From positions 1,088,001 through 1,152,000 of the forward strand of contig OZ250150.1 in assembly GCA_965237675.1 (NCBI GenBank): a stretch of DNA of 64,000 nucleotides, written 5' to 3'. The translations under genes were made by a program, and so were the position numbers. Numbering within the stretch: position 1 is the first letter of the stretch; the number at the start of each line of letters is the position of its first letter. Shown here in pieces: positions 3,541 through 52,996 of the stretch. Under the pieces are notes generated by a model that did not search any database, was not told the origin of the DNA, and saw only the letters and a program-made list of their open reading frames with translations. The stretch comes from Candidatus Latescibacterota bacterium. GTDB lineage: Bacteria > Latescibacterota > UBA2968 > GCA-2709665.

Positions 3541-3750
3541 ATTATTCTTTTTCTCCGTCCTTTTTCTTGTACGCAAGAAAAAGGACCAAAAAGAACGGCG
3601 CCGTTCGGCACGGGGCCGGTTTTTCCGCGAATCACTTCACAGGAGATTGCCAGCGTCGTTGCCCTGCGGCCCATTGGAGCGATCCCGTACCACATTGCTG
3701 AACGGACTAGCGCGGAAAAACCCCCAACGCCACCACCGGTCGTGCGTGAG
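3541..3750 (-). repeat. 81-nt-loop scaffold element, copy A
   Basis: TTTTCCGCG 3621-3629 / CGCGGAAAA 3711-3719 enclosing 81 nt, plus gtcctttttcttg..caagaaaaaggac hairpin; homologous to copies B-E. Confidence 0.85.
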
Positions 3751-3923
3751 GTAGACCCACAAGGACCGCCGCGTGGATTTGCGGTTCTCGCTGGCTGCTG
3801 ACAGCTGATAGACGATAGCTTGTGGCTGCCGTTCCCGTCGCGTCTTCGTGGGAGGTCTTGCTTTCTGGCCGGAGGCAGCGAACCCCGGAGAAGTCGTCCT
3901 TTTGGACATTTTGAAAGCGACGA

Positions 3924-4080
3924 GACCTACCCTCTCTCCCCCTTCCTGAAGGAAGTGGGGAATTATAATTGGTTGAATACATTTCGATGGATGAATATAT
4001 CCAGGTGCAATATCTCGACGGGCCATCGCCCGGTTTTCCTCCCCCTTTCCTTTAGGAGAGGGGGCCGGGGGGAGAGGTTC
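3924..4080. repeat. Palindromic-end non-autonomous element (CCTCTCCCCC..GGAGAGGG family)
   Basis: Highly similar inverted copy at 22464-22619; related copies at 14725-14843, 18288-18539, 46775-46812, 59541-59672. Confidence 0.8.
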
Positions 4081-4092
4081 CCGGGAATATCT

Positions 4093-4200
4093 GTAGGGGC
4101 AACCCTTGTGGTTGCCCTCCCAAAGGCGCGGATATTGCGAATTGCCATCACCGGGCCTTATCGCCAACCGGTTTTGGCTGAACGCTGACTGCTGATCGCT
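4093..4200 (+). repeat. GTAG-REP + 41-nt spacer + AACCGGTT + heptamer composite
   Basis: gtaggggcaacccttgtggttgccc (4093-4117), 41 nt, then tatcgccaaccggttttggctgaacgctgactgctgatcgct; same layout inverted at 41452-41566 and 52436-52551. Confidence 0.8.
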
Positions 4201-4306
4201 GTTGTTCCTGATCGCTAACCCATAGTTGTGTTTTGTTTCACGTATAGAGTCATTATATTTCAGTCGCCGCTCACGTTGCGGAGACCCACTCGTTCTCGAG
4301 GCATCG

Positions 4307-6043
4307 ATGCAAAAATACGCGATCTGGTCGCTCAGACACACGAGAGATTCCGAGTCTTGCCCGGATGGTTCCTCCGGATCCCTTGTGGATGTGGTTATGG
4401 CGAACCGCGATTTGACCGCCGAGGATATCTCGGATTCTCCTGGAAACCTTCAGGACCCGTTTTCCATGAAGGACATGGACCGCCTCACGGAGCGGATTGT
4501 GACGGCGGTTCGTTCGGGCGAACGCATCGTCGTATTTGGCGACTATGACGTGGACGGGGTGACGAGTACAGCCGTATTGATGGATTTACTGGAGAGGGTC
4601 GGAGCGGATGTCGTGTCCATCCTGCCGGACCGCCACCAGGACGGATACGGGATGAAGCCACCCGGCGTCAGGCGAGCGATCGAAGCGGGCGCGCGTCTGA
4701 TTGTGACGGCGGACAACGGCATTTCCTCGTTCGAGGCGGTTGAGGCGGCGAATGCAGCCGGCATCGACGTGTTGGTGACCGATCATCACCAGCCTCAGGA
4801 ACGGTTGCCTGACGCACTCGCGGTGGTCAATCCCAACCGCCCCGATTGCGGCTACGCGTTCAAGGGGCTCGCGGCCGTGGGTGTGGCATTCAAGGTTGTC
4901 CAGGCCCTGTCACAAACCCTGGTCGAGGCGTCGGAACGCAGGGCCTATCTGAATTCGTTGCTGGATCTGGTTGCACTGGGAACGGTTGCGGATGTCGCGC
5001 CGATGTTGGGCGAGAACCGGTTGCTGACTCGCCGGGGTATGCAGATTCTGGATCGGACGCAGCGTCCGGGGCTCCAGGCGTTGAAAGCGGTAGCCGGCGC
5101 CGATACGCGGCCCGTGGATACAACGGCGATCGGATACTTCCTGGGGCCGCGCATCAACAGTGCCGGGCGGCTGGCGTCCGCGGACCTGGCGCTGGACCTG
5201 CTGCGCACCTCGGAGGCGAACGAGGCGGCCCGCCTGGCGGAGCGGCTGAACGCGCTCAACCGACAGCGGCGAGAACTCGAGCTGGCAGGCGTAAAACAGG
5301 CGGTGGAGCAGGTGGAGTCGATGGGGCTGGGCCAAAACCGGATTCTGGTTGCGAAAGGCGAAAGCTGGCACCTGGGCGTGGTGGGGTTGATCGCGGGTCG
5401 ACTGGCGGAGCAGTATGGCAGGCCTGGCATCGCCTGTACCGAGGTTCGCGGGGACGGAAGTTTTACGGGGTCGGCGCGTTCCGCGGCAGGCTACAATATG
5501 GCGGAAGGGATTTTCCGCTGTGCCGATCTGCTGACCGAGTACGGCGGGCACGCTGATGCGGCCGGTTTTACCGGCCCGCTCGGGCATTATGAAGCGTTCA
5601 AAGCACGGCTGGAGGCAGATGCGGCGGATCGGGTCCTGGATGAGGATCTGAGAACCCGGCTGGAACTGGATGCCACGCTTCAGCCAATGGAGATTTCGCT
5701 GGAGACGGTCTCGGCGCTGTCTGCCCTGGCGCCGTTCGGTCGGGGAAATGAAGCGCCGCTGTTTATGGTGCAAGACTGTACGATTGAACGTGCGATTGCG
5801 GTTGGGAAAGGGGCCCACCTTAAAATGAATCTGGACACGGGGTCGTCCGCCGCCCGGGCGGACGGCTCAGCGCGGTCGAGCCCGCGGATATGTGACGCGG
5901 TCTGGTGGGGAAAGGGAGAATTGGCCGTCCGGCTTCGCCGTGGCGATCGCGTGGACGTGGCCTGCGCTCTTGAAGCCAACACCTGGAACGGCCGGACTCA
6001 GGTGCAGCTTGTATTGGAAGATATGCGCCCCGCAGAGGAATAA
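4307..6043 (+). CDS. recJ: Single-stranded DNA exonuclease RecJ
   Basis: GDYDVDGVTS, IVTADNG, VTDHH, LGTVADVAP, LGPRINSAGRL, GGHADAAG, PFGRGN; ATG 4307 preferred. Confidence 0.95.
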   Translation: MQKYAIWSLRHTRDSESCPDGSSGSLVDVVMANRDLTAEDISDSPGNLQDPFSMKDMDRLTERIVTAVRSGERIVVFGDYDVDGVTSTAVLMDLLERVGADVVSILPDRHQDGYGMKPPGVRRAIEAGARLIVTADNGISSFEAVEAANAAGIDVLVTDHHQPQERLPDALAVVNPNRPDCGYAFKGLAAVGVAFKVVQALSQTLVEASERRAYLNSLLDLVALGTVADVAPMLGENRLLTRRGMQILDRTQRPGLQALKAVAGADTRPVDTTAIGYFLGPRINSAGRLASADLALDLLRTSEANEAARLAERLNALNRQRRELELAGVKQAVEQVESMGLGQNRILVAKGESWHLGVVGLIAGRLAEQYGRPGIACTEVRGDGSFTGSARSAAGYNMAEGIFRCADLLTEYGGHADAAGFTGPLGHYEAFKARLEADAADRVLDEDLRTRLELDATLQPMEISLETVSALSALAPFGRGNEAPLFMVQDCTIERAIAVGKGAHLKMNLDTGSSAARADGSARSSPRICDAVWWGKGELAVRLRRGDRVDVACALEANTWNGRTQVQLVLEDMRPAEE

Positions 6044-6083
6044 GAGGGATTCCTGCACACGGAACCCATTTCAAGGCGGTTTC

Positions 6084-7082
6084 TCACTTCATAACCGGAA
6101 CTTCGACTCGCTTCCCGGTCCGGGCGGATTCGTGGGCAGCCGCGGCCACGGCGACCACCCGCCGTCCGTCCCTACCGTCGGATTTTGGCGCTTCGCCCCT
6201 TTGAATACAACCGATGAAGTGAGCGATCTCGTCTGTCATGCCGTTGTTCGAGGGCACCTCTATAGCGGTGGACTTCTCGCCGTGCCGGGCGAATAAGATA
6301 GGCCCTTCCGAGACGTTGAGCTTGAGCGCGCCTCCTGTTCCGGCAACGCCGAGTTCGTAGCTGTTAACCGGGTAGACGCGGCTGCTGCTTAAAGAGCCGA
6401 TGGCGCCCGAGGCGAATTCGATGCCGATGAAGATGCTTTCTTCGATTTCGTTCGCCGGGTCCTCTCCATATCTCATGACAGCATTGACGGCACGGATTTC
6501 ACCGGCAAGCCAGGCGAGTTGGTCCAGTTCGTGGCTGTACATGGAAAACATACCGCCGTACTGTTCCTTCCGCGTCTGCCATCCGCCGACGCCGCCCGGC
6601 GCGGCGGTGCCCAGACGTACGGCATGCGCGAGGGTAATTTCACCGACGTCTCCCCTGTCCACCCGGCGTTTGAGTTCCTGATAAGCGGCCTGAAACCGGC
6701 GGACATAGCCGATCATCAGGAATACGTTGGACTGTTCGGCGGCGCGGATCATCGTATCGCAATCTTCAACGGTAAGCGCCATTGGTTTTTCGCAGAACAC
6801 ATGGGCGCCCGCCAGCGCCGCGTCTGTACTGATGCGGCTGTGCGTGTGGTTGGGCGTCACAACCAGCACGGCGTCCGGTTTCTCGGCAGCCAGCATGGCG
6901 CGATGATCGGCGTAGGGCATCGGGCTGGAATCCAGTTGCGATGCAAGCTGCGCGGCGGATTCCGATACCACGTCGCAGACGGCGACAAGCCGCGCGCCCT
7001 CCATCGCTTCTATGTTTCTGGCGTGGGCGCGGCCCAACCCGCCACATCCCGCGAGCGCGACTTTTAGAGGTTCTTCAGGCAT
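6084..7082 (-). CDS. Gfo/Idh/MocA family oxidoreductase
   Basis: KVALAGCGGLG, TPNHTH, HVFCEKPMA. Confidence 0.92.
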   Translation of the reverse strand: MPEEPLKVALAGCGGLGRAHARNIEAMEGARLVAVCDVVSESAAQLASQLDSSPMPYADHRAMLAAEKPDAVLVVTPNHTHSRISTDAALAGAHVFCEKPMALTVEDCDTMIRAAEQSNVFLMIGYVRRFQAAYQELKRRVDRGDVGEITLAHAVRLGTAAPGGVGGWQTRKEQYGGMFSMYSHELDQLAWLAGEIRAVNAVMRYGEDPANEIEESIFIGIEFASGAIGSLSSSRVYPVNSYELGVAGTGGALKLNVSEGPILFARHGEKSTAIEVPSNNGMTDEIAHFIGCIQRGEAPKSDGRDGRRVVAVAAAAHESARTGKRVEVPVMK

Positions 7083-7139
7083 TGTTGGCTCACGATTGGC
7101 TCGAAACAGTTGGAATTGGTTCGCCGCGGCGGCGGTTTC

Positions 7140-8153
7140 TCATTGCAACTGGATCGGTATGGAACCCTGTTCTGCGGATTCTTCCGCCGCGAAACATGCG
7201 GCGTGGGTGTTGACGGCTACAGCGAGATTGTTGTCGGATTCGACGTCGTCGAGGATACATTCAACAAGGTGGTCGACCATTTCCTGGAAAGGATGGTCGG
7301 CAACGGCGCCGCTGTCGGGCATGACCGCGGGAAAACTGCCGAAGGCGTCCTGGCCGGATAGCTGCCGGGTGTAGAATTGGTTGTTTCGGATCACGCCCTC
7401 CGTGCCGAAAACCTCCAGGTTGAAGACATAAGGCATGAAAAAGGCCGTGGATCCTGAGAATTTTCCGGCGGCGCCCCCCGCGAATTCCACCGTGGCGACC
7501 GTCGTGGAACGGTAGTTCTCCGCATGGGTTCGATGGCGCGGGGAAACGCCCGTTACCCGGGTGACGAGATCATTATCCAGAATGTAACGGGCGGCGTCGA
7601 GGGCATGGCAGCCGCCATGCACAATGGCGCCGTTGACAAACGGGTTCCAACCGGTGCGGCTGAATTTTTCCGGGCGGGCGTTGGTGGGGCCGTGCCAGTA
7701 GTCGGCATGGACAAGCAGAGGAACGCCGACCCAGCCCTTCCCGATGGCCTGTTTGATGGAAATGATGAGTGGATTCCACCGAAGCACGAAGCCGACGACG
7801 GTCTTGACGCCCGCGCTTATCACGGCCCGGTGCATCGCATCCAGTTCGTCGGGGTTGGTGGCCACCGGTTTCTCGATCAGCAGGTGTTTGCCGGCGCGGG
7901 CGGCGGCAATGGCTTCCCCGGCGTGGCGGTCCGGCGGGGTACAGATGGAAACGACGTCGACTTCCGGATGATCGAGAAGCCGGTCGTAGTCATCGTACAG
8001 GTCGCATTCAAGCCCCAGTTCAACCGCTTTCTTCTGGGCGCTTTCCAGCGTCCGGCTCCCGATGGCGACCAACCGGGTGTTAGGGTTGTTAAGATAGGCT
8101 CTTATGTGTTCGGTGGAGACGTTTCCCGCGCCTTGAATTGCAACGCCAAGCAT
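7140..8153 (-). CDS. Gfo/Idh/MocA family oxidoreductase
   Basis: GVAIQGAGNVS, ICTPPDRH, GKHLLIEKP, GCHALD; ATG 8153 after ggagaa RBS. Confidence 0.9.
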   Translation of the reverse strand: MLGVAIQGAGNVSTEHIRAYLNNPNTRLVAIGSRTLESAQKKAVELGLECDLYDDYDRLLDHPEVDVVSICTPPDRHAGEAIAAARAGKHLLIEKPVATNPDELDAMHRAVISAGVKTVVGFVLRWNPLIISIKQAIGKGWVGVPLLVHADYWHGPTNARPEKFSRTGWNPFVNGAIVHGGCHALDAARYILDNDLVTRVTGVSPRHRTHAENYRSTTVATVEFAGGAAGKFSGSTAFFMPYVFNLEVFGTEGVIRNNQFYTRQLSGQDAFGSFPAVMPDSGAVADHPFQEMVDHLVECILDDVESDNNLAVAVNTHAACFAAEESAEQGSIPIQLQ

Positions 8154-8450
8154 GGCTTCTCCCTTTAGACTTTCCTGTAGCATGATGTTCAAGCTTTTCG
8201 GCGGACGACCTGAGAATGCCTGTCCCTCATTTCGCCGCGCGTCGAACGCAAAGATACGAGCGCGTCGTGGCGCCGTCAAGATGGATCCTGTACGTCCTTT
8301 GTTGTCATCGTTAAGGCCGGGCGGGCCGTCTGGCGCTTGCTGTGCGCGGTCGGAGACGTTTGAAGGCGGCCCGGTGAACCGTTGATTTTTCAGGAAGGCC
8401 GCTTTATTTTAGCGCGTGACGTAGAGTTTTTCTCCACATATCCGAGGTGA

Positions 8451-9314
8451 ATGGTGCCGAAACGGATCAATAAAGCTATTGAGCTCCTGGAACAGGGACA
8501 GCCGATATATTATGTCGGCGTCTCCGAGGTATCGTACGAAGCAGGCCGGGAGATGGCCGGGACGTGGGCCGACTATATAAACGTCAGTATGGAGCACGGT
8601 GCGTTCGATATGCGGGGGCTCGGTGACTTCATGCGAGGCCTGGTGGACGGCGGTCCCACGGCCGGCGGGCACAGGACGCCGGCCGTCATCGTCGATCTGC
8701 CGGTGGAGGGGTCGAGTGAAGCGGTGGTTCGCGCCAACGCCTGGATGTTCAAGCAGGCGCTGGCCCGAGGCGTGCATGGAATTCTGCTGTGCCATGCCGA
8801 CGATCCGGAGGGCGTCCGGGCCTTTGTGGAGAGTTGCAGGTATCCGTTCCGGAAGCCGGCCGTGGGGCACGGTGATGGCCGGCGCGGCGCGGGGGGGCAG
8901 GGCTGGGCCGCACAGGTCTGGGGCGTTCCCGCAAACGAGTACCTGGAGAAAGCCGATCCGTGGCCGCTGAATCCGGACGGAGAATTGATGCTGGGCGTGA
9001 AAATCGAGAACAAACGCGCGCTGGCCAACGCGGAGGCGACGGCGAGGGTGCAGGGGCTCGCCTTCGGCGAGTGGGGACCAGGGGATATGGGGATGTCGCT
9101 TGGGCACGCCGATCGGCACGACCCGCCCTATCCGCCTGAAATGGGGGCTGCCCGGGCCCGCGTGATGGCGGCCTGCAAGGACGCCGGCCTATTCTTTCTG
9201 AACGGCGCGAATACGGACAACGTAACGGAGATGATTGACGAGGGCGTGATGATCTGCTCCGGAGGCGGGGAGGCCGTGGCGAAGGTCGGACGGGCGTATA
9301 CTGGCAGAAGATAA
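8451..9314 (+). CDS. HpcH/HpaI aldolase/citrate lyase family protein
   Basis: MEHGAFD, QALARGVHGI, GVKIENKRALAN, GPGDMGMSLG. Confidence 0.82.
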   Translation: MVPKRINKAIELLEQGQPIYYVGVSEVSYEAGREMAGTWADYINVSMEHGAFDMRGLGDFMRGLVDGGPTAGGHRTPAVIVDLPVEGSSEAVVRANAWMFKQALARGVHGILLCHADDPEGVRAFVESCRYPFRKPAVGHGDGRRGAGGQGWAAQVWGVPANEYLEKADPWPLNPDGELMLGVKIENKRALANAEATARVQGLAFGEWGPGDMGMSLGHADRHDPPYPPEMGAARARVMAACKDAGLFFLNGANTDNVTEMIDEGVMICSGGGEAVAKVGRAYTGRR

Positions 9315-9502
9315 ACGCACTTCAGGTCGAACGTGACCGAACAATCGAAACTTATATAAACTGACGGCTGTCCTTCGGAGAAAGGAGCGCAAACACGAAC
9401 GAATACCGTTGCTCCTGGCGCTTGCCGAAGAACCTTTAAAGCAGGCGCCAAAACCACGGTCGTCTGAATTGGCGGTGAACCGTCGATACGAGGAGGGAAG
9501 AG

Positions 9503-10180
9503 ATGTCAAGTTCGAACATACGTACCATCGTGGAGGTCGTGTTGGCGGCGGCGTGCGCGTACCTGGCGTACATCGCGTACATCGCCCCCGTTAATGTCAC
9601 CATCAACTACGATGAGGACAAAATGGTGGCGCACGGCGCGGTTCTGGACTCGATCTGGAGCAAGGATTTCGCCAGAGAAGCGACGCTCGGATGGTTGAAA
9701 GAGAAGGACGTCTATCACTACCAGGACAGCGGATTGGCCGGTCGCCTCGGCGACGCGATGCCGGACGCGACAACACATGGAAACGGCGAAACACTGGATG
9801 AGCGGAAAGCCCGCCTGGAAGGCGCGATTGCGGAAAATCCTCTGATTGCCGATCTTCGCGGCCGGGCGCGTGAACTGCAGCCTCCCTTTCAGTATATCGG
9901 CAAAGAAGTCCGCGTGGGCGTTCCGAGCGGAAACAGACCTCGAAAAAATGTGGCGTACGTCGCCTTCGGGAGCGAGTTCGACGGCAGGGTCGTTGAAATC
10001 TGGAATCCCGCAAACAACAAACGCGTGACGGTGTTTGCGCAGGGTGCGTTCCTGCCCACGGAAACGGTCACGATCGACTTCCAGATGAACAGGCAACAGG
10101 CGGTGGACCTGTTCGCTCGCGTCGAGCAGACCGCGGACGCGGTGGCAGTCATTCTTCCGCCGTCGACGCCGGCGCCGTAG
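9503..10180 (+). CDS. Membrane-anchored hypothetical protein, possible RlpA-like DPBB C-terminus
   Basis: N-terminal TM helix; C-terminal GRVVEIWNPANNKRVTV..IDFQMNRQQAVDL resembles a double-psi barrel. Confidence 0.6.
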   Translation: MSSSNIRTIVEVVLAAACAYLAYIAYIAPVNVTINYDEDKMVAHGAVLDSIWSKDFAREATLGWLKEKDVYHYQDSGLAGRLGDAMPDATTHGNGETLDERKARLEGAIAENPLIADLRGRARELQPPFQYIGKEVRVGVPSGNRPRKNVAYVAFGSEFDGRVVEIWNPANNKRVTVFAQGAFLPTETVTIDFQMNRQQAVDLFARVEQTADAVAVILPPSTPAP

Positions 10181-10319
10181 ACGGGTGGCCGCGGGATCCG
10201 ATTCGGCAATTGTAAGATCACCGGCGGCTCAGCGCTTCTGCATGGCGCGGCCGCCGGTTTGCTTTAGCAGCCCCCGCCATTCCGAGTCGCATTCCTCGGA
10301 TCATTCCTCTCTTCCTCAT

Positions 10320-10856
10320 CTACCGCCCCAACAGTTGTTCGACAGCCCATTCCAACTCCGTTCCGGTATCGGGACCGTAGCCCGTTTGCATGAACCTGAG
10401 TCGGCCCTTCCTGTCAACCAGATAGGTGGTTGGAATGCTACGGATGCCATAGTCGGATCGAACGCCCGGATCGGCGAACAGTACCGGAAAGGTGTAACCG
10501 TTTTTCCTTACAAACGGTTTCACGCGCGCCCGATCGAAGTCCGTGCTGATGGCAAGTACGGTCAGGCCTTTATTGCGGTATCGTTCGTGTAATTTCTGAA
10601 CGTCGGGTAATTCGTACAGGCACGGCACGCACCAGGTGGCCCAGAAGTTGATCAGGACAACACGGCCCTTATTCTCGGACAACCGGACTACCGAACCGTC
10701 CAGACTTTCCAGTGCAAAGTCGGACGCGGCCGGTCCCACGGGGAGGGCGTTCTCCGGCTCCGGCGTCTCGACGAAGATCTGACCCAACGCGACGCCGGCC
10801 AGAACCACTCCCACGGCTATCAACACGGTGTACTTCCATCCGAACCTCAGTTGCAT
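10320..10856 (-). CDS. TlpA/ResA family thiol-disulfide oxidoreductase
   Basis: N-terminal TM helix, GRVVLINFWATWCVPC, IPTTYLVDRKG. Confidence 0.92.
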   Translation of the reverse strand: MQLRFGWKYTVLIAVGVVLAGVALGQIFVETPEPENALPVGPAASDFALESLDGSVVRLSENKGRVVLINFWATWCVPCLYELPDVQKLHERYRNKGLTVLAISTDFDRARVKPFVRKNGYTFPVLFADPGVRSDYGIRSIPTTYLVDRKGRLRFMQTGYGPDTGTELEWAVEQLLGR

Positions 10857-10926
10857 ATCGCTATCCTCTTCCGTTCAACAGACAGGTTCTCGCGCGCCAT
10901 TCCTTCGATCTGACAATCGACCCCCA

Positions 10927-11536: not shown

Positions 11537-11554
11537 GTCTGCGCACGTGTGTCC

Positions 11555-13180: not shown

Positions 13181-13183
13181 CAT

Positions 13184-14332: not shown

Positions 14333-14384
14333 CTTCTTTCCCCCGGGTTTAGACCTTTAAGTGCATCTTCTACGCGATAGGCCT

Positions 14385-34257: not shown

Positions 34258-34617
34258 TGGTGGAGGCGGCGGGAATCGAACCCGCGTCCGGAAGAAAATC
34301 AACGACAGCGTCTACGTGTGTAGTTTACCTTTTGAATCTCACGCGCGGGCGCCCCGGTAAACGGGGTTGCCAGCGCGCCAGCTCGATTAAATCTCGCTCA
34401 CGGTCCCTCGAGCAGAGGTCCGCGAGCCAGCCCGCATAAGTCGACGCCCCGGGCGGGCCCTGCAGGCAAAGCCCGTCGGAACGGGCCGCGTTTTAGTTAC
34501 GCAGCCATTGCGTACGTATTGTCCGCAATTACATGGGTTTCCCACAGTTTAACGAGGTTATGGGACCTCGACACGCAGCCATCGCCTCTCCACCCCCGTC
34601 GAATCCAGGTCGCCCCC
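34258..34617 (-). ncRNA. ssrA: Transfer-messenger RNA
   Basis: 5' GGGGGCGACCTGGATTCGAC; 3' GCGGGTTCGATTCCCGCCGCCTCCACCA with a G3.U pair; tag ORF 34526-34497 GCG GAC AAT ACG TAC GCA ATG GCT GCG TAA = ADNTYAMAA. Confidence 0.96.
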
Positions 34618-38380: not shown

Positions 38381-38648
38381 CGAATGATAACCGTAATTCA
38401 CCTGAAACTCGATGCCAGTATGTGCGGGCACGATGCCCGCGTTCCCGGTAAAAAATCGCGCCGCTCACCACCAACCTCGAACGCCAACACCAGGCGTCCC
38501 CTGTTGGCCCGCAACATCACCGGAACAACAGGTCACCCGCTACGCGGGTGGAACTGGATTCTCCGCGCTTTGACGTCAAGAATCATCATTGTACGGAAAA
38601 ACCGGCACCGCACAATGGCTTGCGGCTTAAGATTTTCTCTCACAGCCG

Positions 38649-38860
38649 CCCGGTCTGGGTGGAAGGGGCTTTTCCGCGCTAATCCGTTCAGCATCATCGT
38701 TCAAGAATGCCTGAACACGCCGCAGGGCAACGGTTTACGTTCTTTCCACAGTGGTGGTTTGCGGAAAAGCAGCCCCGCGGCGTCTGAGCGGCGCCCTTCT
38801 TTTTCGCCCTTTTTCTTGGGCGATGCAAGAAAAAGGGCAAGGGAATAGGGGACGTTAGGG
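38649..38860 (+). repeat. 81-nt-loop scaffold element, copy B
   Basis: TTTTCCGCG 38670-38678 / TGCGGAAAA 38760-38768. Confidence 0.85.
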
Positions 38861-39035
38861 GGTGGAGGAGATTGTATCTCAAAGGCGCCGAAACGCGGGC
38901 ACTTCGACAGGCTCAGTGTGCACATTTCGACAAGCTCAACGACCACGCGTCGGCAAACCCAGGGCAGGCAAGGAACCTTGAACGCTGTTTTCCGTCCTTT
39001 GTCATCTACATTAGCGATCCTTGTGATCGCTTTTT

Positions 39036-41451: not shown

Positions 41452-41820
41452 AGCTATCAGCTGTCAGCAAACAGGTGTCAGCCAAAACCGGTTAGCGAAA
41501 TGGACACGCGATGTTAATCAGCGATATCCTCGCAATTATGGGGGCAACCACAAGGGTTGCCCCTACAAACTAAAATCCTGCGCGGAATTGCCCGCGGCTT
41601 CGCGGGTCCTCCTCTCGCGCGACCGGTTGTAGGGAGGGGTCTTTTCCGCGCCAATCCGTTCAGCAACGAGGTTTGTGAACGCCCGCGATCCAAGCAGGCC
41701 ACCGACCCAAGTTTATGCCCCTGAGGCGGTTCGCGGAAAAGCAGCCCCGCGGCGTCTGAGCGGCGCCGTTCTTTTTGGCCCTTTCTCTTTGGCGAGAAAG
41801 AAAAAGGGCGAAGAAATATA
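41452..41820 (+). repeat. Full composite: heptamers + AACCGGTT + 41-nt spacer + GTAG-REP + scaffold element copy C
   Basis: REP 41542-41566; TTTTCCGCG 41642-41650 / CGCGGAAAA 41732-41740. Confidence 0.85.
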
Positions 41821-44374: not shown

Positions 44375-44414
44375 TTCCCCGTTCCTCCGGCCCTCGTCGC
44401 CATGGTTTTCTCGC

Positions 44415-44443
44415 TTGACGCATCCGCCCGATAAGGATATGTT
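44415..44443 (+). promoter_or_regulatory. Putative sigma70 promoter
   Basis: TTGACG-17-TATGTT upstream of 44492. Confidence 0.45.
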
Positions 44444-44491
44444 AACAGATACCGTATGTCGAATCTATCGCCGTCGTGATCCAGAGACCCT

Positions 44492-45745: not shown

Positions 45746-45774
45746 ACCGGATCGTAAACATAGGAGGATTTCAC

Positions 45775-46710
45775 ATGAAATCTACTGCCAGATGCCTGGT
45801 CCCGTGTCTTGTTTTTCTGTTGTCGATGGGCGCTTCCACACGGGCAGCGGACAAAATCACCATTCGGATCTCCCATCCGGACGGCCGTACCGTCAAGTAC
45901 AAACACAAATATTCCTTTTCCTACAAGAGCGACCGCGCCGAAATTCTCGTTCCCGGACGCACGAATCGCGGAAATACCTCCGGCGAGATCAGGGGCGAAT
46001 GGCAAAGCCGGGAAATCACGCAAACCGGTACGGACGGTGAATCCGATGTGCAAACCACGCGCATTGTCGCAACCTTAAGCAAAGCCTTCAGCGGTTTCTT
46101 CTTCGAGCGGAAACGCCTCACTTACGACCAGTTTCCCTATACGCTGGATCAACTGGACGACCGGCAACTCACCTGGATTCTGTCTTCGGATGGAACGATT
46201 AAGCGGTTTTCACCCAATTTTTCCCCGGCAGAACTCAACCGGCCTGACATTCTCACGGACATCTGGCAGGTCTGGGCGCCCGAATTTCAGCCCGTCCTTC
46301 CGCCGGAGCCGGTCGGCCCCGGCGACACCTGGACGGGCGAACTGAATTTCAAAACCCCGGTCCTGCGGCTCGATGACGACGCCATCGTGGAACTCAAGAG
46401 CACCTACAAGGTGAAAAATATCGCCACCAAAAAGGGAAATAAAATTGTCACGTTTGAGGAAGACAGAGACGTCCGTTTCAGAGCGCCTGTCAATATTGGC
46501 TCCCTGTCTCTGGTCGTCGACGGAACCGGAGAAGGTAAAAGCACCTGGGTCATCGACACGGACCGCGGAATCGTGCTGTCCCAAAAGGTACGGATGAACA
46601 TCACGCGCCCCCAGGTAAGGCGTATAGACCACAAGAAACCCGTGGACAATATCCGCGCCGAAATCAACATGAGTTACGAACGGAAACTGGACAAAGTGGA
46701 AAAGGAATAA
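45775..46710 (+). CDS. Exported hypothetical beta-rich protein
   Basis: aggagg RBS, signal peptide MKSTARCLVPCLVFLLSMGASTRA; LPPEPVGPGDTW motif. Confidence 0.72.
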   Translation: MKSTARCLVPCLVFLLSMGASTRAADKITIRISHPDGRTVKYKHKYSFSYKSDRAEILVPGRTNRGNTSGEIRGEWQSREITQTGTDGESDVQTTRIVATLSKAFSGFFFERKRLTYDQFPYTLDQLDDRQLTWILSSDGTIKRFSPNFSPAELNRPDILTDIWQVWAPEFQPVLPPEPVGPGDTWTGELNFKTPVLRLDDDAIVELKSTYKVKNIATKKGNKIVTFEEDRDVRFRAPVNIGSLSLVVDGTGEGKSTWVIDTDRGIVLSQKVRMNITRPQVRRIDHKKPVDNIRAEINMSYERKLDKVEKE

Positions 46711-46714
46711 AAAG

Positions 46715-47125
46715 GCAGCAATCAGCGGTCAGCGTACAGCAGTCAGCTTAAACCGGTTGACGATACGGCCCGGGACCTCTCCCCCCAGCCCCCTCTCCTA
46801 AAGGAAAGGGGACAGTGGCTAGTTCGCGTCCTATCACGCGACCGGTGGCGGGGATGGGGGGGGTTTCGCGGCAAGACCGCAAACCCGTTCAATAATCCGA
46901 CCAGGTATCATTCGTGCCCGCCCGGTTGAGGTGATGGGGGGCTTTTCCGCGTTATTCCGTTCAGCAACGTCGTCTCGGACAGCCTGCGGCGCCGGCAGGG
47001 CAACATCGCTCGTATTCTCCACTGAGGATATTTGCGGAAAAGCAGCCCCGCGGCGTTTGAGCGGCGCCGTTCTTTTTGGTCCTTTTTCTTGGGCGTACAA
47101 GAAAAAGGACGAAGAAAAAATGAGA
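46715..47125 (+). repeat. Heptamers + half CCTCTCC element + scaffold element copy D
   Basis: TTTTCCGCG 46943-46951 / TGCGGAAAA 47033-47041; terminal cctttttcttg..caagaaaaagg hairpin. Confidence 0.85.
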
Positions 47126-47168
47126 ATTGATTGAAGTGAGGGGGTGTCTATAAATCCCTCTATCCTTG

Positions 47169-48068
47169 ATGCGCGACCAGAATAAAGCCTACCTCTACGC
47201 CATAGCCACGGTTCTTCTCTGGTCGACCGTCGCCTCCGCCTTCAAGATCTCCCTCCGATATCTGGACCCCCTTCAGCTTCTCTTCTACTCAGTTCTGGTC
47301 TCTACGTGTACCCTGGCGATCATTGTCGTCATCCAGGGAAAGCAAAGCCTCGTCTTTTCTTATTCAAAACACCAATATTGGAAATCCCTCCTTCTCGGCC
47401 TGCTCAACCCCTGCGTCTATTACTTCGTCCTCTTCAAAGCGTACGACCTTCTGCCCGCCCAGGAAGCCCAACCCCTGAACTACACCTGGGCCATTACGCT
47501 CTCGCTCCTGTCCATTCCGCTTTTAAAACAGCGCATAAAACCACAGGAAATCGTTGCCGGGTTCGTGTGTTATTCCGGCGTCCTGGTGATCTCCACGCGC
47601 GGCAACGTCCTGGACTTCCGGCTCTCGGACCCGCTCGGCGTAACCCTGGCCCTCGCCAGCACGATCGTATGGGCATTCTACTGGATCTACAACACGCGGG
47701 ATGACCGGGACGCCGTTGTCGGCCTTTTTCTCAACTTCACGTTTGCCATGCCGTTCATTTTCGTACTCTGCCTGCTCTTCTCGGATCTCCGTATCTCGAA
47801 TCACTACGGCCTGATGGGCGCCGCATACGTCGGCGTTTTCGAAATGGGCATCGCCTTCGTTTTCTGGCTCGTCGCGCTACGACTCTCGGAAACTACGGCC
47901 AGAGTTGCCAACCTGATCTTCATCTCTCCGTTCGTCTCCCTGATCTTCATCCACTTCCTGGTGGGCGAAGAAATCCTGCCTTCCACCCCGATCGGGCTGA
48001 TTCTCATTGTCGCCGGCCTGGTGATCCAGCGGCTCGGTTCGCGATTGACGTGGCGAAATCAGGAATGA
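47169..48068 (+). CDS. DMT/EamA family transporter
   Basis: About 10 TM helices; LLWSTVASAFK, AQPLNYTW, VANLIFISPF. Confidence 0.9.
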   Translation: MRDQNKAYLYAIATVLLWSTVASAFKISLRYLDPLQLLFYSVLVSTCTLAIIVVIQGKQSLVFSYSKHQYWKSLLLGLLNPCVYYFVLFKAYDLLPAQEAQPLNYTWAITLSLLSIPLLKQRIKPQEIVAGFVCYSGVLVISTRGNVLDFRLSDPLGVTLALASTIVWAFYWIYNTRDDRDAVVGLFLNFTFAMPFIFVLCLLFSDLRISNHYGLMGAAYVGVFEMGIAFVFWLVALRLSETTARVANLIFISPFVSLIFIHFLVGEEILPSTPIGLILIVAGLVIQRLGSRLTWRNQE

Positions 48069-48072
48069 TCTC

Positions 48073-48101
48073 TTGACATTTCATCCGGAAGTTACCATAT
48101 T
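48073..48101 (+). promoter_or_regulatory. Putative higBA promoter
   Basis: TTGACA-17-CATATT overlapping imperfect IR gttacc-atatt-gggaac. Confidence 0.55.
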
Positions 48102-48137
48102 GGGAACATATGCCGTCGTGTGTTCAGGTAATCCCCT

Positions 48138-48434
48138 ATGCACGTAATTACCCGTAAGAGACTACAGGAATTCTGTAGAAACCATCCGGATTCTCAGCGT
48201 CCCCTGAAAGCTTGGCTGGCCATCGTAAGATCGAAAAACTATTTCAGCCCTTACGAAGTTCGATGGGATTTTCCCTCTGCAAGTTTCCTTGGAAGATGGC
48301 GGACAGTTTTCAACATCGGAGGCAACAAATACAGGCTGGTTGTCGATATGCGTTACGACCTTGGGAGGATTTACATCCGACACGTGCTTACACACGAAGA
48401 ATACGACAGACGCACTCGAAGTGGCGATTTATGA
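48138..48434 (+). CDS. higB: HigB-family toxin
   Basis: MHVITRKRLQEF..HPDS..L.AW..VFNIGGNKYRLV..LTHEEYD. Confidence 0.92.
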   Translation: MHVITRKRLQEFCRNHPDSQRPLKAWLAIVRSKNYFSPYEVRWDFPSASFLGRWRTVFNIGGNKYRLVVDMRYDLGRIYIRHVLTHEEYDRRTRSGDL

Positions 48435-48450
48435 ACAATCTCCAAAGGCA

Positions 48451-48852
48451 ATGGATATGACCAGTTTGCTGGACTTCTCTAGACCTCATGTCTTACGAAA
48501 CGAAGCCGAATACGACACGGCAGTGCGCGAAATCGATGACCTGCTGGACGCCGATCCCGAACCGGGTTCAGAAGCATATGAACGCCTGGAATTTCTTTCC
48601 GTTTTGGTACATGCGTACGAAGATGCCCGGTCTCCCATCGATGAAAATATGGATCCCCGGGAGATCGTGGAGTTTATGCTGGAGCAGAAGGGACTCTCGC
48701 GATCCGATCTCGCCGAATGGTTCGGTGGCAGAAGCCGTGTTTCCGAATTCTTCAAAGGCTCCCGAACCCTCTCCATTCGCCAAATTGCCGCCCTGACGAA
48801 AAACCTGGGTATCCCTGCCGACTTGCTTATCGCGCGCGATAGAAGGAGTTGA
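48451..48852 (+). CDS. higA: HigA-family HTH antitoxin
   Basis: NEAEYD..LEFLSVLVHAYE..MLEQKGLSRSDL..GGRSRVSE..R.LS..QI..L..GIPADLL; start 48451 or 48457. Confidence 0.9.
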   Translation: MDMTSLLDFSRPHVLRNEAEYDTAVREIDDLLDADPEPGSEAYERLEFLSVLVHAYEDARSPIDENMDPREIVEFMLEQKGLSRSDLAEWFGGRSRVSEFFKGSRTLSIRQIAALTKNLGIPADLLIARDRRS

Positions 48853-48997
48853 GCCGGCGAAATACGGTAAAGCCGTCAGACTGCGCTACAGACCACCTGA
48901 CGGCCTTTTCTTGTTCCTTGCAGATGCAACCATCATGCGACGCAACCGGGACATCTCGCGATAGGGGCGTCACGATCAAATTGCAATTCACAGAAGT

Positions 48998-49432
48998 CTA
49001 CGAATCGGATTTGAGCATAGAGAGCCCCATTGCGGCCAGGATCAACGGCAGGGCGGCGTCTATCACAATCCACACCGCGGAAACCGTTTCCATTCTTATG
49101 GCGGTGAAAGCGGGACTGTGGAGGTTGAAGAAGTTCCAGAAAAAGAGAATGCCAACAAAAAGGAGGCCGTAGAATTGCACGTTGGCTTCGAGATATTCAC
49201 GGGTTACCGGAGCGCCACCCTGGTCCTGGCCAAGACCGCGCTTGCGAATATATCCGAAGATTACGCCCAACACGATCGCCAGCACCATGAGCGCATTAAT
49301 CTTGCTCCAATGCGGGCTGTACGGGCTGGCTTCGGTGGAAGTATAATACAGGGGTTCGGCGACCGTATGGATTGCCACCACGGCCGCAACGACTATAAGA
49401 TAGACGCCAACGATGCGTTTGAACGAATCCAT
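48998..49432 (-). CDS. Hypothetical 4-TM membrane protein
   Basis: Four hydrophobic segments; aaggag RBS. Confidence 0.72.
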   Translation of the reverse strand: MDSFKRIVGVYLIVVAAVVAIHTVAEPLYYTSTEASPYSPHWSKINALMVLAIVLGVIFGYIRKRGLGQDQGGAPVTREYLEANVQFYGLLFVGILFFWNFFNLHSPAFTAIRMETVSAVWIVIDAALPLILAAMGLSMLKSDS

Positions 49433-49626
49433 ACGTTGTTTCTCCTTTCTCTGGTGCGATCGTCTACTGGGGGCCGCTCGATGTCCGGGAATGTGTTAAA
49501 GCGCACTGAACGCCGGGCAAAAACAGCCGTCGAAATATAGCGGGCGTGACCGACCGCGGCAATCAAAACCATGCGCGCCGGTCAGTCGGGATATTCGATT
49601 TGCCCTCATCCCGGCCGGACCCGGAC

Positions 49627-51075
49627 CTACAAGAACGGAAACATCCTCGCTGGCTCGTATCCCGGCATCACCGACCGGTGCTCACGGCCCGCAATCAGAG
49701 TCTCCCCGTCCGTAAACCCCTCGGGCCTCCCGTCAAGAAACCCGATCAACCGTTTCCGCCACGGTGCCAACCGATCCTCCGCGCCATCCCCCGACGCCAG
49801 GTCTTTCAGTTCAAGCGGATCTTCGTCCAGGTCGAACAGGTGCTCCCGGCCCGTCTGTGTGTACCAGACGTATTTATGATGCCCATCCGTTACATAGTGA
49901 TTTCCATGCTCGTACGCATAGCACCCGGAATGCTCGCCGTGCAACACGTCGCGAACTCCGACGGCTTCCCCGCGCAGGACCGGCGCCAGACTCCTTCCCG
50001 TGCACGTTTCCGGCACCTCCAGGCCGCAGGCATCCAGAATTGTCGGCATGATATCCTGAAGCCCCACTGGCGTATGGCACGTCACCGATTCCGGCGCCCC
50101 CCAGCTCTGCGGCGCCCGGATCAGATACGGCACTCTCGCCGACGCCTCATAGGGCCACGTTTTCCGGAACAAGTGATGATCCCCGAGCATCTCCCCGTGG
50201 TCTGACGTGAAGATGATGAGACTCTCATTCAAGACACCCCGCGCGAATTGAATCAGCCTTCCGATCTGATCGTCGATAAAATTCACCATCCCGTAATACG
50301 CCGCCCGCGCGCACTGCATATCGTACGCGCCAAGACAGATTTCCGGCGCATTCGGATCCAACCCCTTTCGCGGCCCGTCGAACTCAGGCGCCCAATCTCC
50401 CACAACGGGTTCGGGCAACGCCCGATTGATATAGCGGTCATAGTAGACCTCTGGGGGCGTCAACGGGGGATGCGGATCGATGAAGGAGAGATTCAGGAAA
50501 AAGGGCGCAGACGGATCCCGCTTCTGAAGAAACGCCATGGCCCGGTCCACGCACCAGAACGTATGCATCTGCTCTTCAGGCAGATGGTGCGGGCGTCCCA
50601 CCCAACCGTTCGACGAAAGGCCGTGCGCCATCCCGGGATCCACTTCCATACGCCCATGCCGCTCGCGCAGCCAATCCACATAGTCGTTCTCCTTCCCCCG
50701 AGTACCATCCGCAAGCTGCATATGGTCGAATCCGTACCGCTTTCGTATCGGGTGCAAATGTAACTTTCCGATCATCTCCGTCTGATATCCCGCCCTGGAC
50801 AGTTCTCCCGCCAGGGTGTGCGACGGTTCCCACTCCGTTCCCTGAAACCCCACCACGCCGTTCGCTGCGGGCGCAGTCCCCGTCATCAGACACCGCCTTG
50901 CGGGAATACAACTCGGACACTCCGAATACCCGCGACCAAAAAATGCTCCCGTACTGCCCAGCCAGTCGAGATTGGGTGTCTGTAGAACCTCCGGCGCTTC
51001 GGGGTCCAGACCCACGCAATCCCCCCGCTGCTGATCCGTCGTAATCAACACCACGTTAGGCCGATCTTTCGGCAT
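49627..51075 (-). CDS. Formylglycine-dependent sulfatase
   Basis: RPNVVLITTDQQR, CIPAR (CxPxR), GKLH, DPHPP, FTSDHGEMLGDH. Confidence 0.93.
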   Translation of the reverse strand: MPKDRPNVVLITTDQQRGDCVGLDPEAPEVLQTPNLDWLGSTGAFFGRGYSECPSCIPARRCLMTGTAPAANGVVGFQGTEWEPSHTLAGELSRAGYQTEMIGKLHLHPIRKRYGFDHMQLADGTRGKENDYVDWLRERHGRMEVDPGMAHGLSSNGWVGRPHHLPEEQMHTFWCVDRAMAFLQKRDPSAPFFLNLSFIDPHPPLTPPEVYYDRYINRALPEPVVGDWAPEFDGPRKGLDPNAPEICLGAYDMQCARAAYYGMVNFIDDQIGRLIQFARGVLNESLIIFTSDHGEMLGDHHLFRKTWPYEASARVPYLIRAPQSWGAPESVTCHTPVGLQDIMPTILDACGLEVPETCTGRSLAPVLRGEAVGVRDVLHGEHSGCYAYEHGNHYVTDGHHKYVWYTQTGREHLFDLDEDPLELKDLASGDGAEDRLAPWRKRLIGFLDGRPEGFTDGETLIAGREHRSVMPGYEPARMFPFL

Positions 51076-51087
51076 TTCACGCTCCTT

Positions 51088-52326
51088 TCACGTAATTCCA
51101 AGCGCCGCGTCTATCTCCGCCTGATAGGCGTCTATCTTACCGGCCTCTACTTCCGACATCCGTACCGCCCGACCCGCCACGGCGGACTCGAAAACCCCAT
51201 ACACCGCAGCCACGTCCTTCATCCCCTCCGTGCCGTCCACCTCCACTTCCTTTCCCTCCGCAATGGCTTCGCCCAACTCGTAGTACTCCATGGCAAGAAG
51301 CTTCAAATCCACCTCGCGGTCCGCCGACGTGACTCCGGTTGGGAAAAAATAGGCCGTCAGCGCATCCGGCTCGAAGCCCTCCGCGCCTGCCAGCATTTCC
51401 TCTTGTTCCTGGAATTCGCCGCGGCCGCGACGCAAACGCACCCGTCCACCGCGTGTGCCAAAACCCTCAACGCACCCCTCCGTGCCGAGAATCAACTGGG
51501 TACCGCATCCTCCATATCCTCCCAACCCAACCACCCAGCTCACGGTGGCGCCATTGGCCATGCGAAATATCGCCACGGACGAATCCTCTGCGTCGGCCGG
51601 AACGGCATGCGCCATGTCTTCGAATTGTTTCCGGTAAAACTCATAGGGCATCCACATCGTCTCGGCCTTTCGCCGCACCGGCTCCACCAGCCGCACATCG
51701 CCGTACACTTCGTGGATATCCCCCATTTGATAACGGATCAGGTCGGTATAGTGTACCCCCATATCCACCAGCGGCCCTCCGCGATTCTTGAGGTGGCGCC
51801 AGGGAGTGATGAAGATCCGGTCCCCCTCGCTCACCTGATGAAACAGACCCATGTACGGAATCCCTATCGCGCCGCTCGCCACCATATGGTGCGCCAGCCG
51901 CGCCGAAGGGTCACGGCGGTAGTTCTCCGCCACGGACAGCACCCGGCCGTTCCGCTCTGCCGCCTGAATCATCATCAAACAAGCCCGAACGGTAATTGCC
52001 ATCGGCTTTTCCACCATCACATGCAGCCCACAGTCCAGCGCCCGGCAGGCCACCTCGTGGTGTACCGACGGATCGGTCACCACGTCCACGGCATTCAGTT
52101 CCGGCATCGCGGCGGCCATTGTCTCCAGATCCGCAAAAACCACCGGCTCGACCCCAAGGAGCTTCCTGGCTTCCCTGGCCGCCATTTCGGCGTTGTCCCG
52201 ATTGATGTCGCACAAGGCCCGCAATTCGATCCTGTTGAACGGCGTCTGTGCAAGCGTCCGCAGACCGTAGAGGTGCCGCGTCCCCATGCCGCCACATCCC
52301 ACCAATCCCAGGTTGATCCGCTCCAT
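51088..52326 (-). CDS. Gfo/Idh/MocA family oxidoreductase
   Basis: GLVGCGGMG, HVMVEKPMA, VAENYRRD, DMGVH; aaggaga RBS before ATG 52326. Confidence 0.9.
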   Translation of the reverse strand: MERINLGLVGCGGMGTRHLYGLRTLAQTPFNRIELRALCDINRDNAEMAAREARKLLGVEPVVFADLETMAAAMPELNAVDVVTDPSVHHEVACRALDCGLHVMVEKPMAITVRACLMMIQAAERNGRVLSVAENYRRDPSARLAHHMVASGAIGIPYMGLFHQVSEGDRIFITPWRHLKNRGGPLVDMGVHYTDLIRYQMGDIHEVYGDVRLVEPVRRKAETMWMPYEFYRKQFEDMAHAVPADAEDSSVAIFRMANGATVSWVVGLGGYGGCGTQLILGTEGCVEGFGTRGGRVRLRRGRGEFQEQEEMLAGAEGFEPDALTAYFFPTGVTSADREVDLKLLAMEYYELGEAIAEGKEVEVDGTEGMKDVAAVYGVFESAVAGRAVRMSEVEAGKIDAYQAEIDAALGIT

Positions 52327-52388
52327 ATCGGTCTCCTTGCTCAAAACTCCCGGCGCGCCTGTCCAGACGCCCTTGACAAGCACGCCAC

Positions 52389-52434
52389 GTTCGCTATCTT
52401 TGCCCCGCCGGGTGGCGGGGCAAAGATAGCGAAC
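52389..52434. other. Perfect 21-bp inverted repeat in a divergent intergenic region
   Basis: gttcgctatctttgccccgcc-gggt-ggcggggcaaagatagcgaac. Confidence 0.8.
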
Positions 52435-52435
52435 A

Positions 52436-52996
52436 GCCGTTAGCAACAACAGCTATCAGCCGACAGCCAACACCGGTTAACGATAGGGCAACGCGATGTC
52501 AATCAGCGATATACGCGCCGCGACGTGGGCAACCACAAGGGTTGCCCCTGCAAACTCAAACACGGCGATGAAGGGCGTCTGCGGTCCATTGTATAAGCCG
52601 TTGATCCACAACATTTGTTGAGAGGTGCATTTCTGGCGCTCGCTCACGGAATATACCCGTCACGCGACCGGTCGTGGTGTGGGGGTTTTTTCCGCGTAGA
52701 TCCGTCCAACCGTGTCGCCTCGTGTATGCTCAGGCGGTCTCAGGGCAATGTCTCACGATTTCTCCACTAAGGAGATTCGCGGAAAAGCCGGCCCCGTGCC
52801 GAACGGCGCCGTTCTTTCGAAACCGGAAGAGGTAAGACGTTAGAAGACCGCCCTGCCCCCCACAGATGGGGCGACCTCTACGGGCTTCCCTTTCGAATCT
52901 CCTCTGGCTTCTCGCTTGCGAGGGTCCAGAGGCGGGAGTGTAATGTGACAAAGTTACCAACCCTTCTCACCTCTTCCTTCTTGCGTCTTACGGTTT
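52436..52996 (+). repeat. Full composite: heptamers + 41-nt spacer + REP + scaffold copy E + nested heptamer-arm element
   Basis: REP 52527-52551; TTTTCCGCG 52688-52696 / CGCGGAAAA 52778-52786; insert 52819-52996. Confidence 0.82.

Follow-up and report, generated by a model that had tools for sequence, protein, structure and literature searches.

The window analyzed here is a 64,000-nucleotide stretch of a Candidatus Latescibacterota genome (contig OZ250150.1, positions 1,088,001 to 1,152,000). It carries five intergenic copies, A to E, of a repeat element that is non-coding and was identified throughout its genome. The family to which these copies belong is a previously undescribed set of modular non-coding intergenic repeats of Candidatus Latescibacterota, a designation that takes Rfam as negative and compares BOX and ERIC sequences by description only. 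Among the matches listed, the family was found almost only in this uncultured phylum, at ∼70 copies per genome. The element comprises a long stem closing a variable segment of 80–82 nt, a short hairpin and a 3′ hairpin whose loop pairs upstream in an H-type pseudoknot. It is best explained, with moderate confidence, as a BOX/ERIC-like modular intergenic repeat acting as a folded RNA.

The 99-nt cores of the five copies (stem arm, 81 nt, stem arm) occupy positions 3621–3719 on the minus strand (A) and 38670–38768 (B), 41642–41740 (C), 46943–47041 (D) and 52688–52786 (E) on the plus strand. Parsed with a single pattern, each reads TTTTCCGCG, exactly 81 nt and then (C/T)GCGGAAAA (YGCGGAAAA). Within the 81 nt the order is N4, TCCGTTCAGCA, a 29-mer, CAGGGCAA, a 27-mer and TT, with two exceptions: copy E reads TCCGTCCAACC for TCCGTTCAGCA, and copy C reads CAGGCCAC for CAGGGCAA. 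These positions, strands, lengths and exceptions, as given in an earlier note on this DNA, were borne out to the base. The anchors of the inner segment are TCCGTYCAGCA, CAGGGCA, a weaker CCACTGAGG and ATT. In copies A to D the conserved stretch extends from CGnCCGG, ∼25 nt upstream, through the end of a CCTTTTTCTT..AAGAAAAAGG hairpin ∼70 nt downstream, in agreement with the CCTTT..AAAAGG hairpin noted earlier for these four; copy E lacks the 3′ hairpin because another repeat replaces that part. The element measures ∼190 nt, and optional extensions at its 5′ and 3′ ends bring it to as much as ∼260 nt. The full elements are listed with their counterparts in two sister species, G008 and G012; the genome of the window itself (5.6 Mb, 58% G+C, completeness 99.93%) is referred to as G000.

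3557..3742, minus strand: copy A, full element from CGACCGG to the end of the 3′ hairpin; syntenic copy in G012
38647..38838, plus strand: copy B, full element, then a G-rich tail module to ∼38880; syntenic in G008 and G012
41620..41809, plus strand: copy C, full element, second anchor CAGGCCAC, one C in the U2 tract; syntenic in G008 (other inner subfamily) and G012
46919..47110, plus strand: copy D, full element; syntenic in G008 and G012; no copy there in 11 further members of the genus
52665..52819, plus strand: copy E, 3′-truncated, ending within the U1 tract (TTCTTTCG) with another repeat next to it; the G008 and G012 orthologues keep the hairpin

The secondary structure was assessed by covariation in alignment A2, consisting of 82 sequences from many genomes, and, for the 3′ module, in alignment A3, consisting of 107 sequences from four genera. 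Counts of changes on both sides of a pair refer to alignment cells, not to independent events. RNAalifold applied to A2 retained a long stem, P2, together with two further pairs, and nothing else. P2 is a stem of 13–16 bp (9–16 bp as an inverted repeat) that closes the 80–82-nt segment. It was paired in 99.0% of cells, compared with 45–69% in slid controls, and 72 cells were changed on both sides, as against 17.2 ± 11.0 in shuffled alignments, with none of 500 shuffles reaching the observed count. Three P2 pairs switch cleanly (CG 40/UA 40, GC 66/AU 13 and CG 62/UA 18). Given that 17 G·U cells were counted in P2 against 3 A·C cells over the 82 sequences, the plus strand is the folded strand. 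The second helix, P3, is a 4-bp hairpin of the form CC(G/C)(C/T)-loop-(G/A)(C/G)GG, fully paired in 103 of 106 matched copies and present as four variants (GC/GC 75, GT/AC 17, CC/GG 6 and CT/AG 5).

The 3′ module consists of two further helices. The hairpin S2, of 12–13 bp, was 94.7% paired in A3, and five of its 12 pairs were changed on both sides. The 4–5 pairs proximal to its base covary (for example, CG 43/UA 36/GC 12), and the seven inner pairs (UUUUCUU/AAGAAAA) never do. In S1, the GGCG of the hairpin loop pairs with a CGCC just upstream of the U tract; this helix was 98.6% paired over the 107 sequences and switches at one pair between CG (91) and GC (13) and at another between CG (102) and UA (1). 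For the module as a whole, 81 cells were changed on both sides, compared with 14.4 in shuffles (0 of 500 as high), and slid controls were much lower. Because S1 and S2 are arranged in crossed order, the module is an H-type pseudoknot in which both helices are held by compensatory change, the events being fewer than the cells. The CGCG/CGCG tail is probably one lineage, and independent events are therefore few. The first idea of the earlier note, a structured family folded in a single strand, thus stands in respect of its structure, with three covarying helices. A 5′ helix, CGnCCGG/GGCGCC, that had been predicted from five sequences disappeared when 82 were used. Of the pairs returned by an all-against-all scan with permissive settings, most were artefacts of conserved G columns, and P2, the hairpin base and the CGCC/loop pair were kept. 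The parts of the structure are given below for copy D.

46936..46951, plus strand: G-run and 5′ arm of P2 (GGGGGGC TTTTCCGCG), from P2 covariation
46952..47032, plus strand: 81-nt inner segment (N4, TCCGTTCAGCA, 29-mer, CAGGGCAA, 27-mer, TT), without a conserved internal helix
47033..47047, plus strand: 3′ arm of P2 (TGCGGAAAA GCAGCC), first T in a G·U pair, from P2 covariation
47048..47064, plus strand: hairpin P3 (CCGC - GGCGTTTGA - GCGG), pairing kept in four variants
47065..47068, plus strand: S1a (CGCC), 5′ strand of the pseudoknot, partner GGCG at 47092–47095, from S1 covariation
47070..47077, plus strand: U1 tract TTCTTTTT, pseudoknot loop 1 and putative Hoogsteen strand; TTCTTTT invariant in 107 of 107
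47079..47090, plus strand: S2a (GTCC TTTTTCTT), 5′ strand of the 12-bp hairpin; base-proximal pairs covary
47091..47098, plus strand: hairpin loop GGGCGTAC, of which GGCG at 47092–47095 is S1b, from S1 covariation
47099..47110, plus strand: S2b (AAGAAAAA GGAC), purine strand of the hairpin, from alignment A3

BOX elements of Streptococcus pneumoniae and the ERIC/IRU (enterobacterial repetitive intergenic consensus/intergenic repeat unit) sequences of enterobacteria are structured intergenic repeats of tens to hundreds of copies, assembled from recombining modules, that lack a transposase, lie in either orientation and are predicted to fold stably if transcribed. The Latescibacterota repeat is likewise modular, intergenic, structured, devoid of a transposase of its own and found in either orientation. 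By description, it is set apart by its covarying pseudoknot, its length-locked, unstructured segment of 80–82 nt and its restriction to Latescibacterota. The following minimal model can be proposed for its action. The plus strand would fold into P2, closing the 80–82-nt segment, the short P3 and the pseudoknotted 3′ hairpin, with UUCUUUU lying in the major groove. In view of the tolerance for G·U pairs and the upkeep of the pseudoknot, the working form would be RNA, supplied by read-through or from a nearby promoter. The 3′ module may serve as a compact fold that is nuclease-resistant or protein-binding, and the length-locked segment as a spacer or as a surface contacted by protein or RNA, with its sequence setting the subfamilies. 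Past spread would have been that of a non-autonomous element dependent on a trans-acting factor, and the present copies would be kept by structural constraint.

Several observations weigh against a folded RNA. A single-stranded DNA (ssDNA) form would give the same covariation, and DNA hairpins tolerate G·T pairs. The covariation figures count cells, and the S1 switch may reflect a single inherited tail type and one additional event. Relative to shuffled sequences, the plus and the minus strand both fold better (z = −2.79 and −3.44, respectively), and thermodynamics therefore does not pick the strand. Copies B, C and D contain an alternative hairpin resembling a terminator (GCGGCGTYTGAGCGGCGCCGT, then TCTTTTT), which overlaps P3 and S1. 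No conserved promoter was found upstream, homology falling sharply 5′ of CGnCCGG, and no mobilizing enzyme was identified in searches of G000 for TnpB, IS110, Y1_Tnp and reverse transcriptase genes. Genomic context, examined with crude gene calls based on open reading frames (ORFs) after removal of ORFs overlapping copies, adds a further difficulty. The strands of the upstream and downstream genes relative to the copy (12 same/same, 15 same/opposite, 21 opposite/same and 25 opposite/opposite) look random, and in tandem intergenic regions 12 copies were sense and 25 antisense (n = 37). Such random-looking orientation is awkward for a cis-acting mRNA element. The inconsistent orientation reported earlier for the window thus holds genome-wide with these gene calls. 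The copies showed no preference for a type of intergenic region either (15 convergent, 21 divergent and 37 tandem, against a background of 240, 323 and 678).

The abundance of the family was established with an nhmmer profile built from copies A to E and run on G000 at a threshold of E ≤ 1e-3. The five copies themselves scored between 1e-39 and 4e-44, far past chance, and 88 matches were obtained, of which 73 were good near-full copies on both strands; the five-copy element of the earlier note is accordingly a small sample of a much larger set. Fifty-five of the 73 copies fall within 1.0–3.0 Mb, a crowding of which the GC skew, being noisy, gives no account. Same-strand arrays with a spacing of 350–900 bp were found at C1:1546–1570 kb (10 copies, minus strand) and C1:1579–1605 kb (five copies, plus strand); they are in part tandem duplications of ∼888-bp units. 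No informative ORF was seen in the tandem arrays at C1:1545–1549 kb. In contigs assembled from four sequencing runs, contig ends coincide with repeat copies.

BLAST with copy D matched 24 of 41 related genomes, the window's own included: 14 of 14 in genus g1, to which G000 belongs (all other members), two of two in each of g2 and g3, further genera of the same family, one of one in g7, and few in the sister family; g4, g5 and most of g6 were without the element. A 24-letter pattern scan with one genome per species returned at least 97 stretches. Among the 80 matches listed, nearly all were in records titled Candidatus Latescibacterota; four lay in one metagenome-assembled genome (MAG) titled Gemmatimonadota and one in an untitled MAG, and full copies were present at two of the four Gemmatimonadota-titled loci and at the untitled locus. 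One-off matches to the pattern were also listed for Pseudovibrio, Bacteroidales, Solibacteraceae, Lachnospiraceae and Poribacteria; none of them is among the full-length copies, and they were taken as chance. A search of the whole window against Rfam 15 brought only the transfer-messenger RNA (tmRNA) to its gathering score, and copies D and A, searched at E ≤ 10, gave sub-threshold chance matches, the best being Phe_leader at 26.2 bits compared with a gathering score of 55. Rfam 15 thus contains no family for the repeat, for which the earlier note had recognized no name, and a literature search found no description of repeats or non-coding RNAs in Latescibacterota.

Both G008 and G012 have a region collinear with the window, the coding parts being 77–94% identical. 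Copies B to E have counterparts at the syntenic sites of both sister species; copy A has one in G012, and its region is unaligned within the G008 stretch examined. A compensated change seen in no other copy turns one P2 pair from C-G to A-U in the G012 copy at locus A. At loci C, D and E, the inner subfamily in G008 differs from that in G000, and at locus D the P3 variant differs too. Copy E and its syntenic counterpart in G012 have identical inner segments, although the intergenic DNA around them can no longer be aligned. Three genomes have a copy at locus D; in 11 others of the genus the locus is empty and the intergenic region carries other repeats. Near the site syntenic to window position 35.8 kb, an extra copy is present in G008 and G012 and none in G000. 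Locus D and the 35.8-kb locus are too rearranged for clean empty-site junctions. Opposite window 35.7–35.95 kb (loci L128/L129), G008 also contains an extra segment of ∼0.9 kb that has no counterpart in G012 or G000.

Some copies are truncated or have a second repeat nested in them, and in genus g3 the 5′ domain attached to the 3′ module is G-rich and unrelated. In genome G016 of this genus, seven loci (L138, L143, L148, L150, L154, L158 and L163) carry a G-rich domain of ∼170 nt ahead of the 3′ pseudoknot module, still with a CCAGTGAGG-like motif. This arrangement suggests a wider superfamily built round the 3′ pseudoknot module. What seemed to be half copies in G003 and G015 are complete, with 5′ halves that have diverged. 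Syntenic persistence, turnover and the exchange of modules together indicate an old, modular family with turnover at the level of genera and structural constraint on copies in place.

The main rival to a folded RNA is a DNA-level element whose folded plus strand, as ssDNA, would serve an HUH/Y1 transposase (IS200/IS605- or RAYT-like) or a site-specific recombinase (attC-like), the element moving or recombining as ssDNA. Such an element is considered rather unlikely. The hairpin-rich, strand-specific fold, the same-strand arrays at C1:1546–1605 kb and the differing inner subfamilies at one locus in sister species would all suit it. Target-site duplication is not predicted for Y1 transposition, and none was found: the longest word shared by 70-nt flanks averaged 5.76 for matched and 5.94 for mismatched flanks (62 copies, with approximate boundaries). 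G000 also contains three Y1_Tnp-like genes. By contrast, Y1_Tnp was found in 7 of 14 members of the genus, compared with 14 of 14 for the element, and occurs in element-free genomes as well; no 3′ module lay within 6 kb of the three Y1 genes of G000, and nhmmer found no match to the core element at the loci around Y1 genes. The copies, moreover, are dispersed over both strands, and a covarying pseudoknot is more typical of RNA.

The repeat was further compared with known kinds of mobile repeat and recombination site. REPs (repetitive extragenic palindromes) are 20–40-nt palindromes beginning with GTAG. The REP/BIME (bacterial interspersed mosaic element) repeats served by RAYT transposases resemble the Latescibacterota repeat in being intergenic, hairpin-forming and strand-specific, and the Y1_Tnp-like genes of G000 add to the likeness. 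The repeat differs in its length of ∼190 nt, in lacking the GTAG-palindrome layout and in not being tracked by Y1_Tnp. G000 has separate GTAG hairpins, which are more natural RAYT substrates and are likelier than the repeat to be the substrates of its RAYT-like Y1_Tnp genes. Hairpins of the form GTAGGGGC(A/G)ACC...GGT(T/C)GCCC lie at window ∼41545–41590, just 5′ of copy C, and adjoin many other copies in G000. In copies A to E the ends are unlike the attC core sites RYYYAAC and GTTRRRY (no search for the integrase gene intI was made). Most copies are scattered over the two strands; same-strand arrays do exist at C1:1546–1605 kb. Miniature inverted-repeat transposable elements (MITEs) are, like the repeat, small, non-autonomous, multi-copy and polymorphic in presence between relatives. 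In the repeat, however, the inverted repeat P2 is internal, with conserved sequence extending ∼25 nt beyond it on the 5′ side and ∼70 nt on the 3′ side; target-site duplication is absent, and neither a parent insertion sequence nor a longer version bracketing an ORF was seen among the loci examined and G000.

Returning to the folded RNA, the invariant tracts of the 3′ module raise the possibility of a triple helix. The UUCUUUU of loop 1 is invariant in 107 of 107 sequences, and AAGAAAA and UUUUCUU are invariant or nearly so, whereas the pairs neighboring the S2 tracts vary freely. Loop 1, 5′-UUCUUUU(U)-3′, matches the purine strand, 5′-AAGAAAA(A)-3′, position for position in parallel. If loop 1 lay in the major groove, six or seven U·A-U triples and one C+·G-C triple would form, as judged from the sequence. 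In genera g3 and g7, C-G takes the place of U-A as the eighth S2 pair, and the loop lacks its eighth U. A review describes U·A-U and C+·G-C as the most stable types of triple, four consecutive triples as sufficient for a triple helix, and telomerase RNAs as H-type pseudoknots with a major-groove triple helix (PMC7583470). For SAM-II, preQ1-II and telomerase RNA the same review gives 2–3 U·A-U triples, compared with the seven or eight predicted from sequence for the repeat (PMC7583470).

H-type pseudoknots with a major-groove triplex (telomerase RNA and the SAM-II and preQ1-II riboswitches) and the ENE/MALAT1 stability elements resemble the repeat, which shares the topology S1a, U-rich loop, S2a, S1b, short loop, S2b. 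The Latescibacterota element differs in being a dispersed multi-copy repeat, unlike a single-copy riboswitch or the RNA of a ribonucleoprotein. A bolder possibility, held to be unlikely, is that the constant 3′ module forms, in bacteria, a telomerase- or ENE-like pseudoknot whose triple helix has seven or eight consecutive major-groove triples and which would cap and stabilize ∼70 small RNAs per genome. The 81-nt cassette would then be the specificity determinant (a guide, a decoy or a protein-sorting tag), and cassettes would be exchangeable at a fixed locus; inner cassettes at a fixed locus do differ between sister species. Should the triplex form, it would be unusually long among natural bacterial triplexes and would be a candidate for an RNA-stability element from beyond eukaryotes and eukaryotic viruses.

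The inner segment itself is constrained in length and divergent in sequence. In 68 of the 73 G000 copies both arms lie 79–84 nt apart, the range accepted by the pattern, and the inner lengths are 81 nt in 51 copies, 82 in 12, 80 in four and 83 in one; the remaining five copies are truncated or deleted, or their arms have diverged. In other genomes 75 of 77 copies were matched, with 50 at 81 nt, 23 at 82 and two at 80. The description of the segments as indel-free is accordingly right for A to E and does not extend genome-wide, 17 of the 68 G000 copies differing from 81 nt (16 by 1 nt and one by 2 nt). Over 51 copies with 81-nt segments, the two stem arms averaged a pairwise identity of 0.93 and the two anchors 0.84, compared with 0.415 for the 29-mer and 0.497 for the 27-mer, so that the contrast between near-invariant flanks and divergent loops drawn in the window is reproduced. 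No conserved helix was found inside the 81-nt segment, either in minimum-free-energy folds of 40 copies or by RNAalifold on the 82 sequences. Mutual information within it was dominated by subfamily structure, with no pairs resembling base pairs. Another G000 copy with at least 70% identity was found for 44 of 67 inner segments, and 35 of 67 had a match of at least 70% among 75 sampled copies from other genomes. Inner variation thus lies between subfamilies that are common to paralogues and species, not between individual copies.

A length locked at 80–82 nt while identity drops to 41–50%, discrete inner subfamilies conserved across paralogues and species, and conserved anchors framing the variable parts are features that ∼70 trans-acting RNAs would share if a constant scaffold (P2, P3 and pseudoknot) presented the 81-nt segment as a programmable guide, decoy or target. 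The omega-RNAs of TnpB/IscB and the bridge RNAs of IS110 are guide RNAs derived from mobile elements, encoded at transposon ends and provided with programmable segments of fixed length. The repeat resembles them in combining a structured scaffold with a fixed-length segment. It differs in that its variable part is internal. Neither the TnpB zinc ribbon (PF07282) nor the IS110 DEDD domain (PF01548) had a match in G000, which is 99.93% complete. The 66-nt variable parts of the 68 copies gave only two marginal matches (E = 0.001 and 0.004) in G000 outside known copies, and copy D with its flanks, the copy searched, was unmatched in phage and plasmid collections. Given also the lack of a conserved promoter and the quite different 5′ domain carried by the 3′ module in g3, a guide function appears quite improbable, and the guide-or-target part of the idea in the earlier note is unsupported by the G000, phage and plasmid searches.

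Hypermutation of the loop on copying, DGR-like (diversity-generating retroelement) or error-prone, would account for very divergent loops between near-invariant flanks at constant length, and four reverse transcriptase genes are present in G000; it is, however, largely refuted and very improbable, since the spectrum is ordinary (1315 transitions and 1250 transversions, all six classes common and no base-specific bias, in 196 pairs of 75–99% identity), inner subfamilies cross genomes, one segment is identical at a syntenic locus and the four reverse transcriptase genes have no 3′ module within 6 kb. The inner segment is not hypermutated. A DGR variable region was specifically rejected: adenine-specific substitutions were not seen, and no reverse transcriptase is adjacent. 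A decayed 27-codon gene fragment, for example of a mobilizer, is likewise largely refuted and scarcely credible: one plus-strand frame is open over the 99-nt core in 38 of 51 copies, with TGA or TAA often at CCACTGAGG, yet no frame on either strand is open in all 51, per-site entropy has no 3-nt periodicity (phase test, p = 0.25, 51 copies), the one-nucleotide length variants would break the frame, the longest ORF entering a copy has no constant frame, length or stop position, and compensatory changes preserve base pairs, not amino acids. The repeat element is therefore non-coding, and neither of these two suggestions of the earlier note survives.

The repeat fills a visible share of the intergenic DNA of the phylum, breaks short-read assemblies and offers a ready-made clade marker. 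It combines three unusual features: a variable segment held to length, a covarying pseudoknot, and three invariant tracts of 7–8 nt laid out for a pyrimidine-motif triplex. Without the triplex, the family would still be a clean new case of structured repeats spreading without a recognizable transposase.

Further small repeats were observed in and beside the copies. A second MITE-like repeat with inverted ends GGAAGAGGTAAGACG...CGTCTTAC occupies the window from 52820 to ∼53010, after copy E; in G000 it is inserted in the 3′ hairpin of the element, or replaces it, at C1:1065826, 1593096, 2332462 and 2334871. One tail type has, after the hairpin, the G-rich module GGGCAAGGGAATAGGGGACGTTAGGGGGTGG..GATT (window 38835–38880 for copy B, and about one-third of G000 copies), to which TTCGACAAGCTCA-like repeat units are often appended. 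A perfect palindrome of 29–33 nt (CTGCCTGCGCCGAG..CTCGGCAGGCAGG) is located between P3 and GGCGCC at G000:C1:1156560 and in 12 of the 82 A2 sequences, and has the appearance of a very small hairpin element inserted into the repeat. Elsewhere in the window, the tmRNA gene lies at 34258–34617 on the minus strand (Rfam, 204.6 bits; ARAGORN tag peptide ADNTYAMAA). Tracts rich in CAGC/TCAGC (for example, GGTCAGCGTACAGCAGTCAGC) occur right after a stop codon at 46715–46770 and in the same place in several members of the genus.

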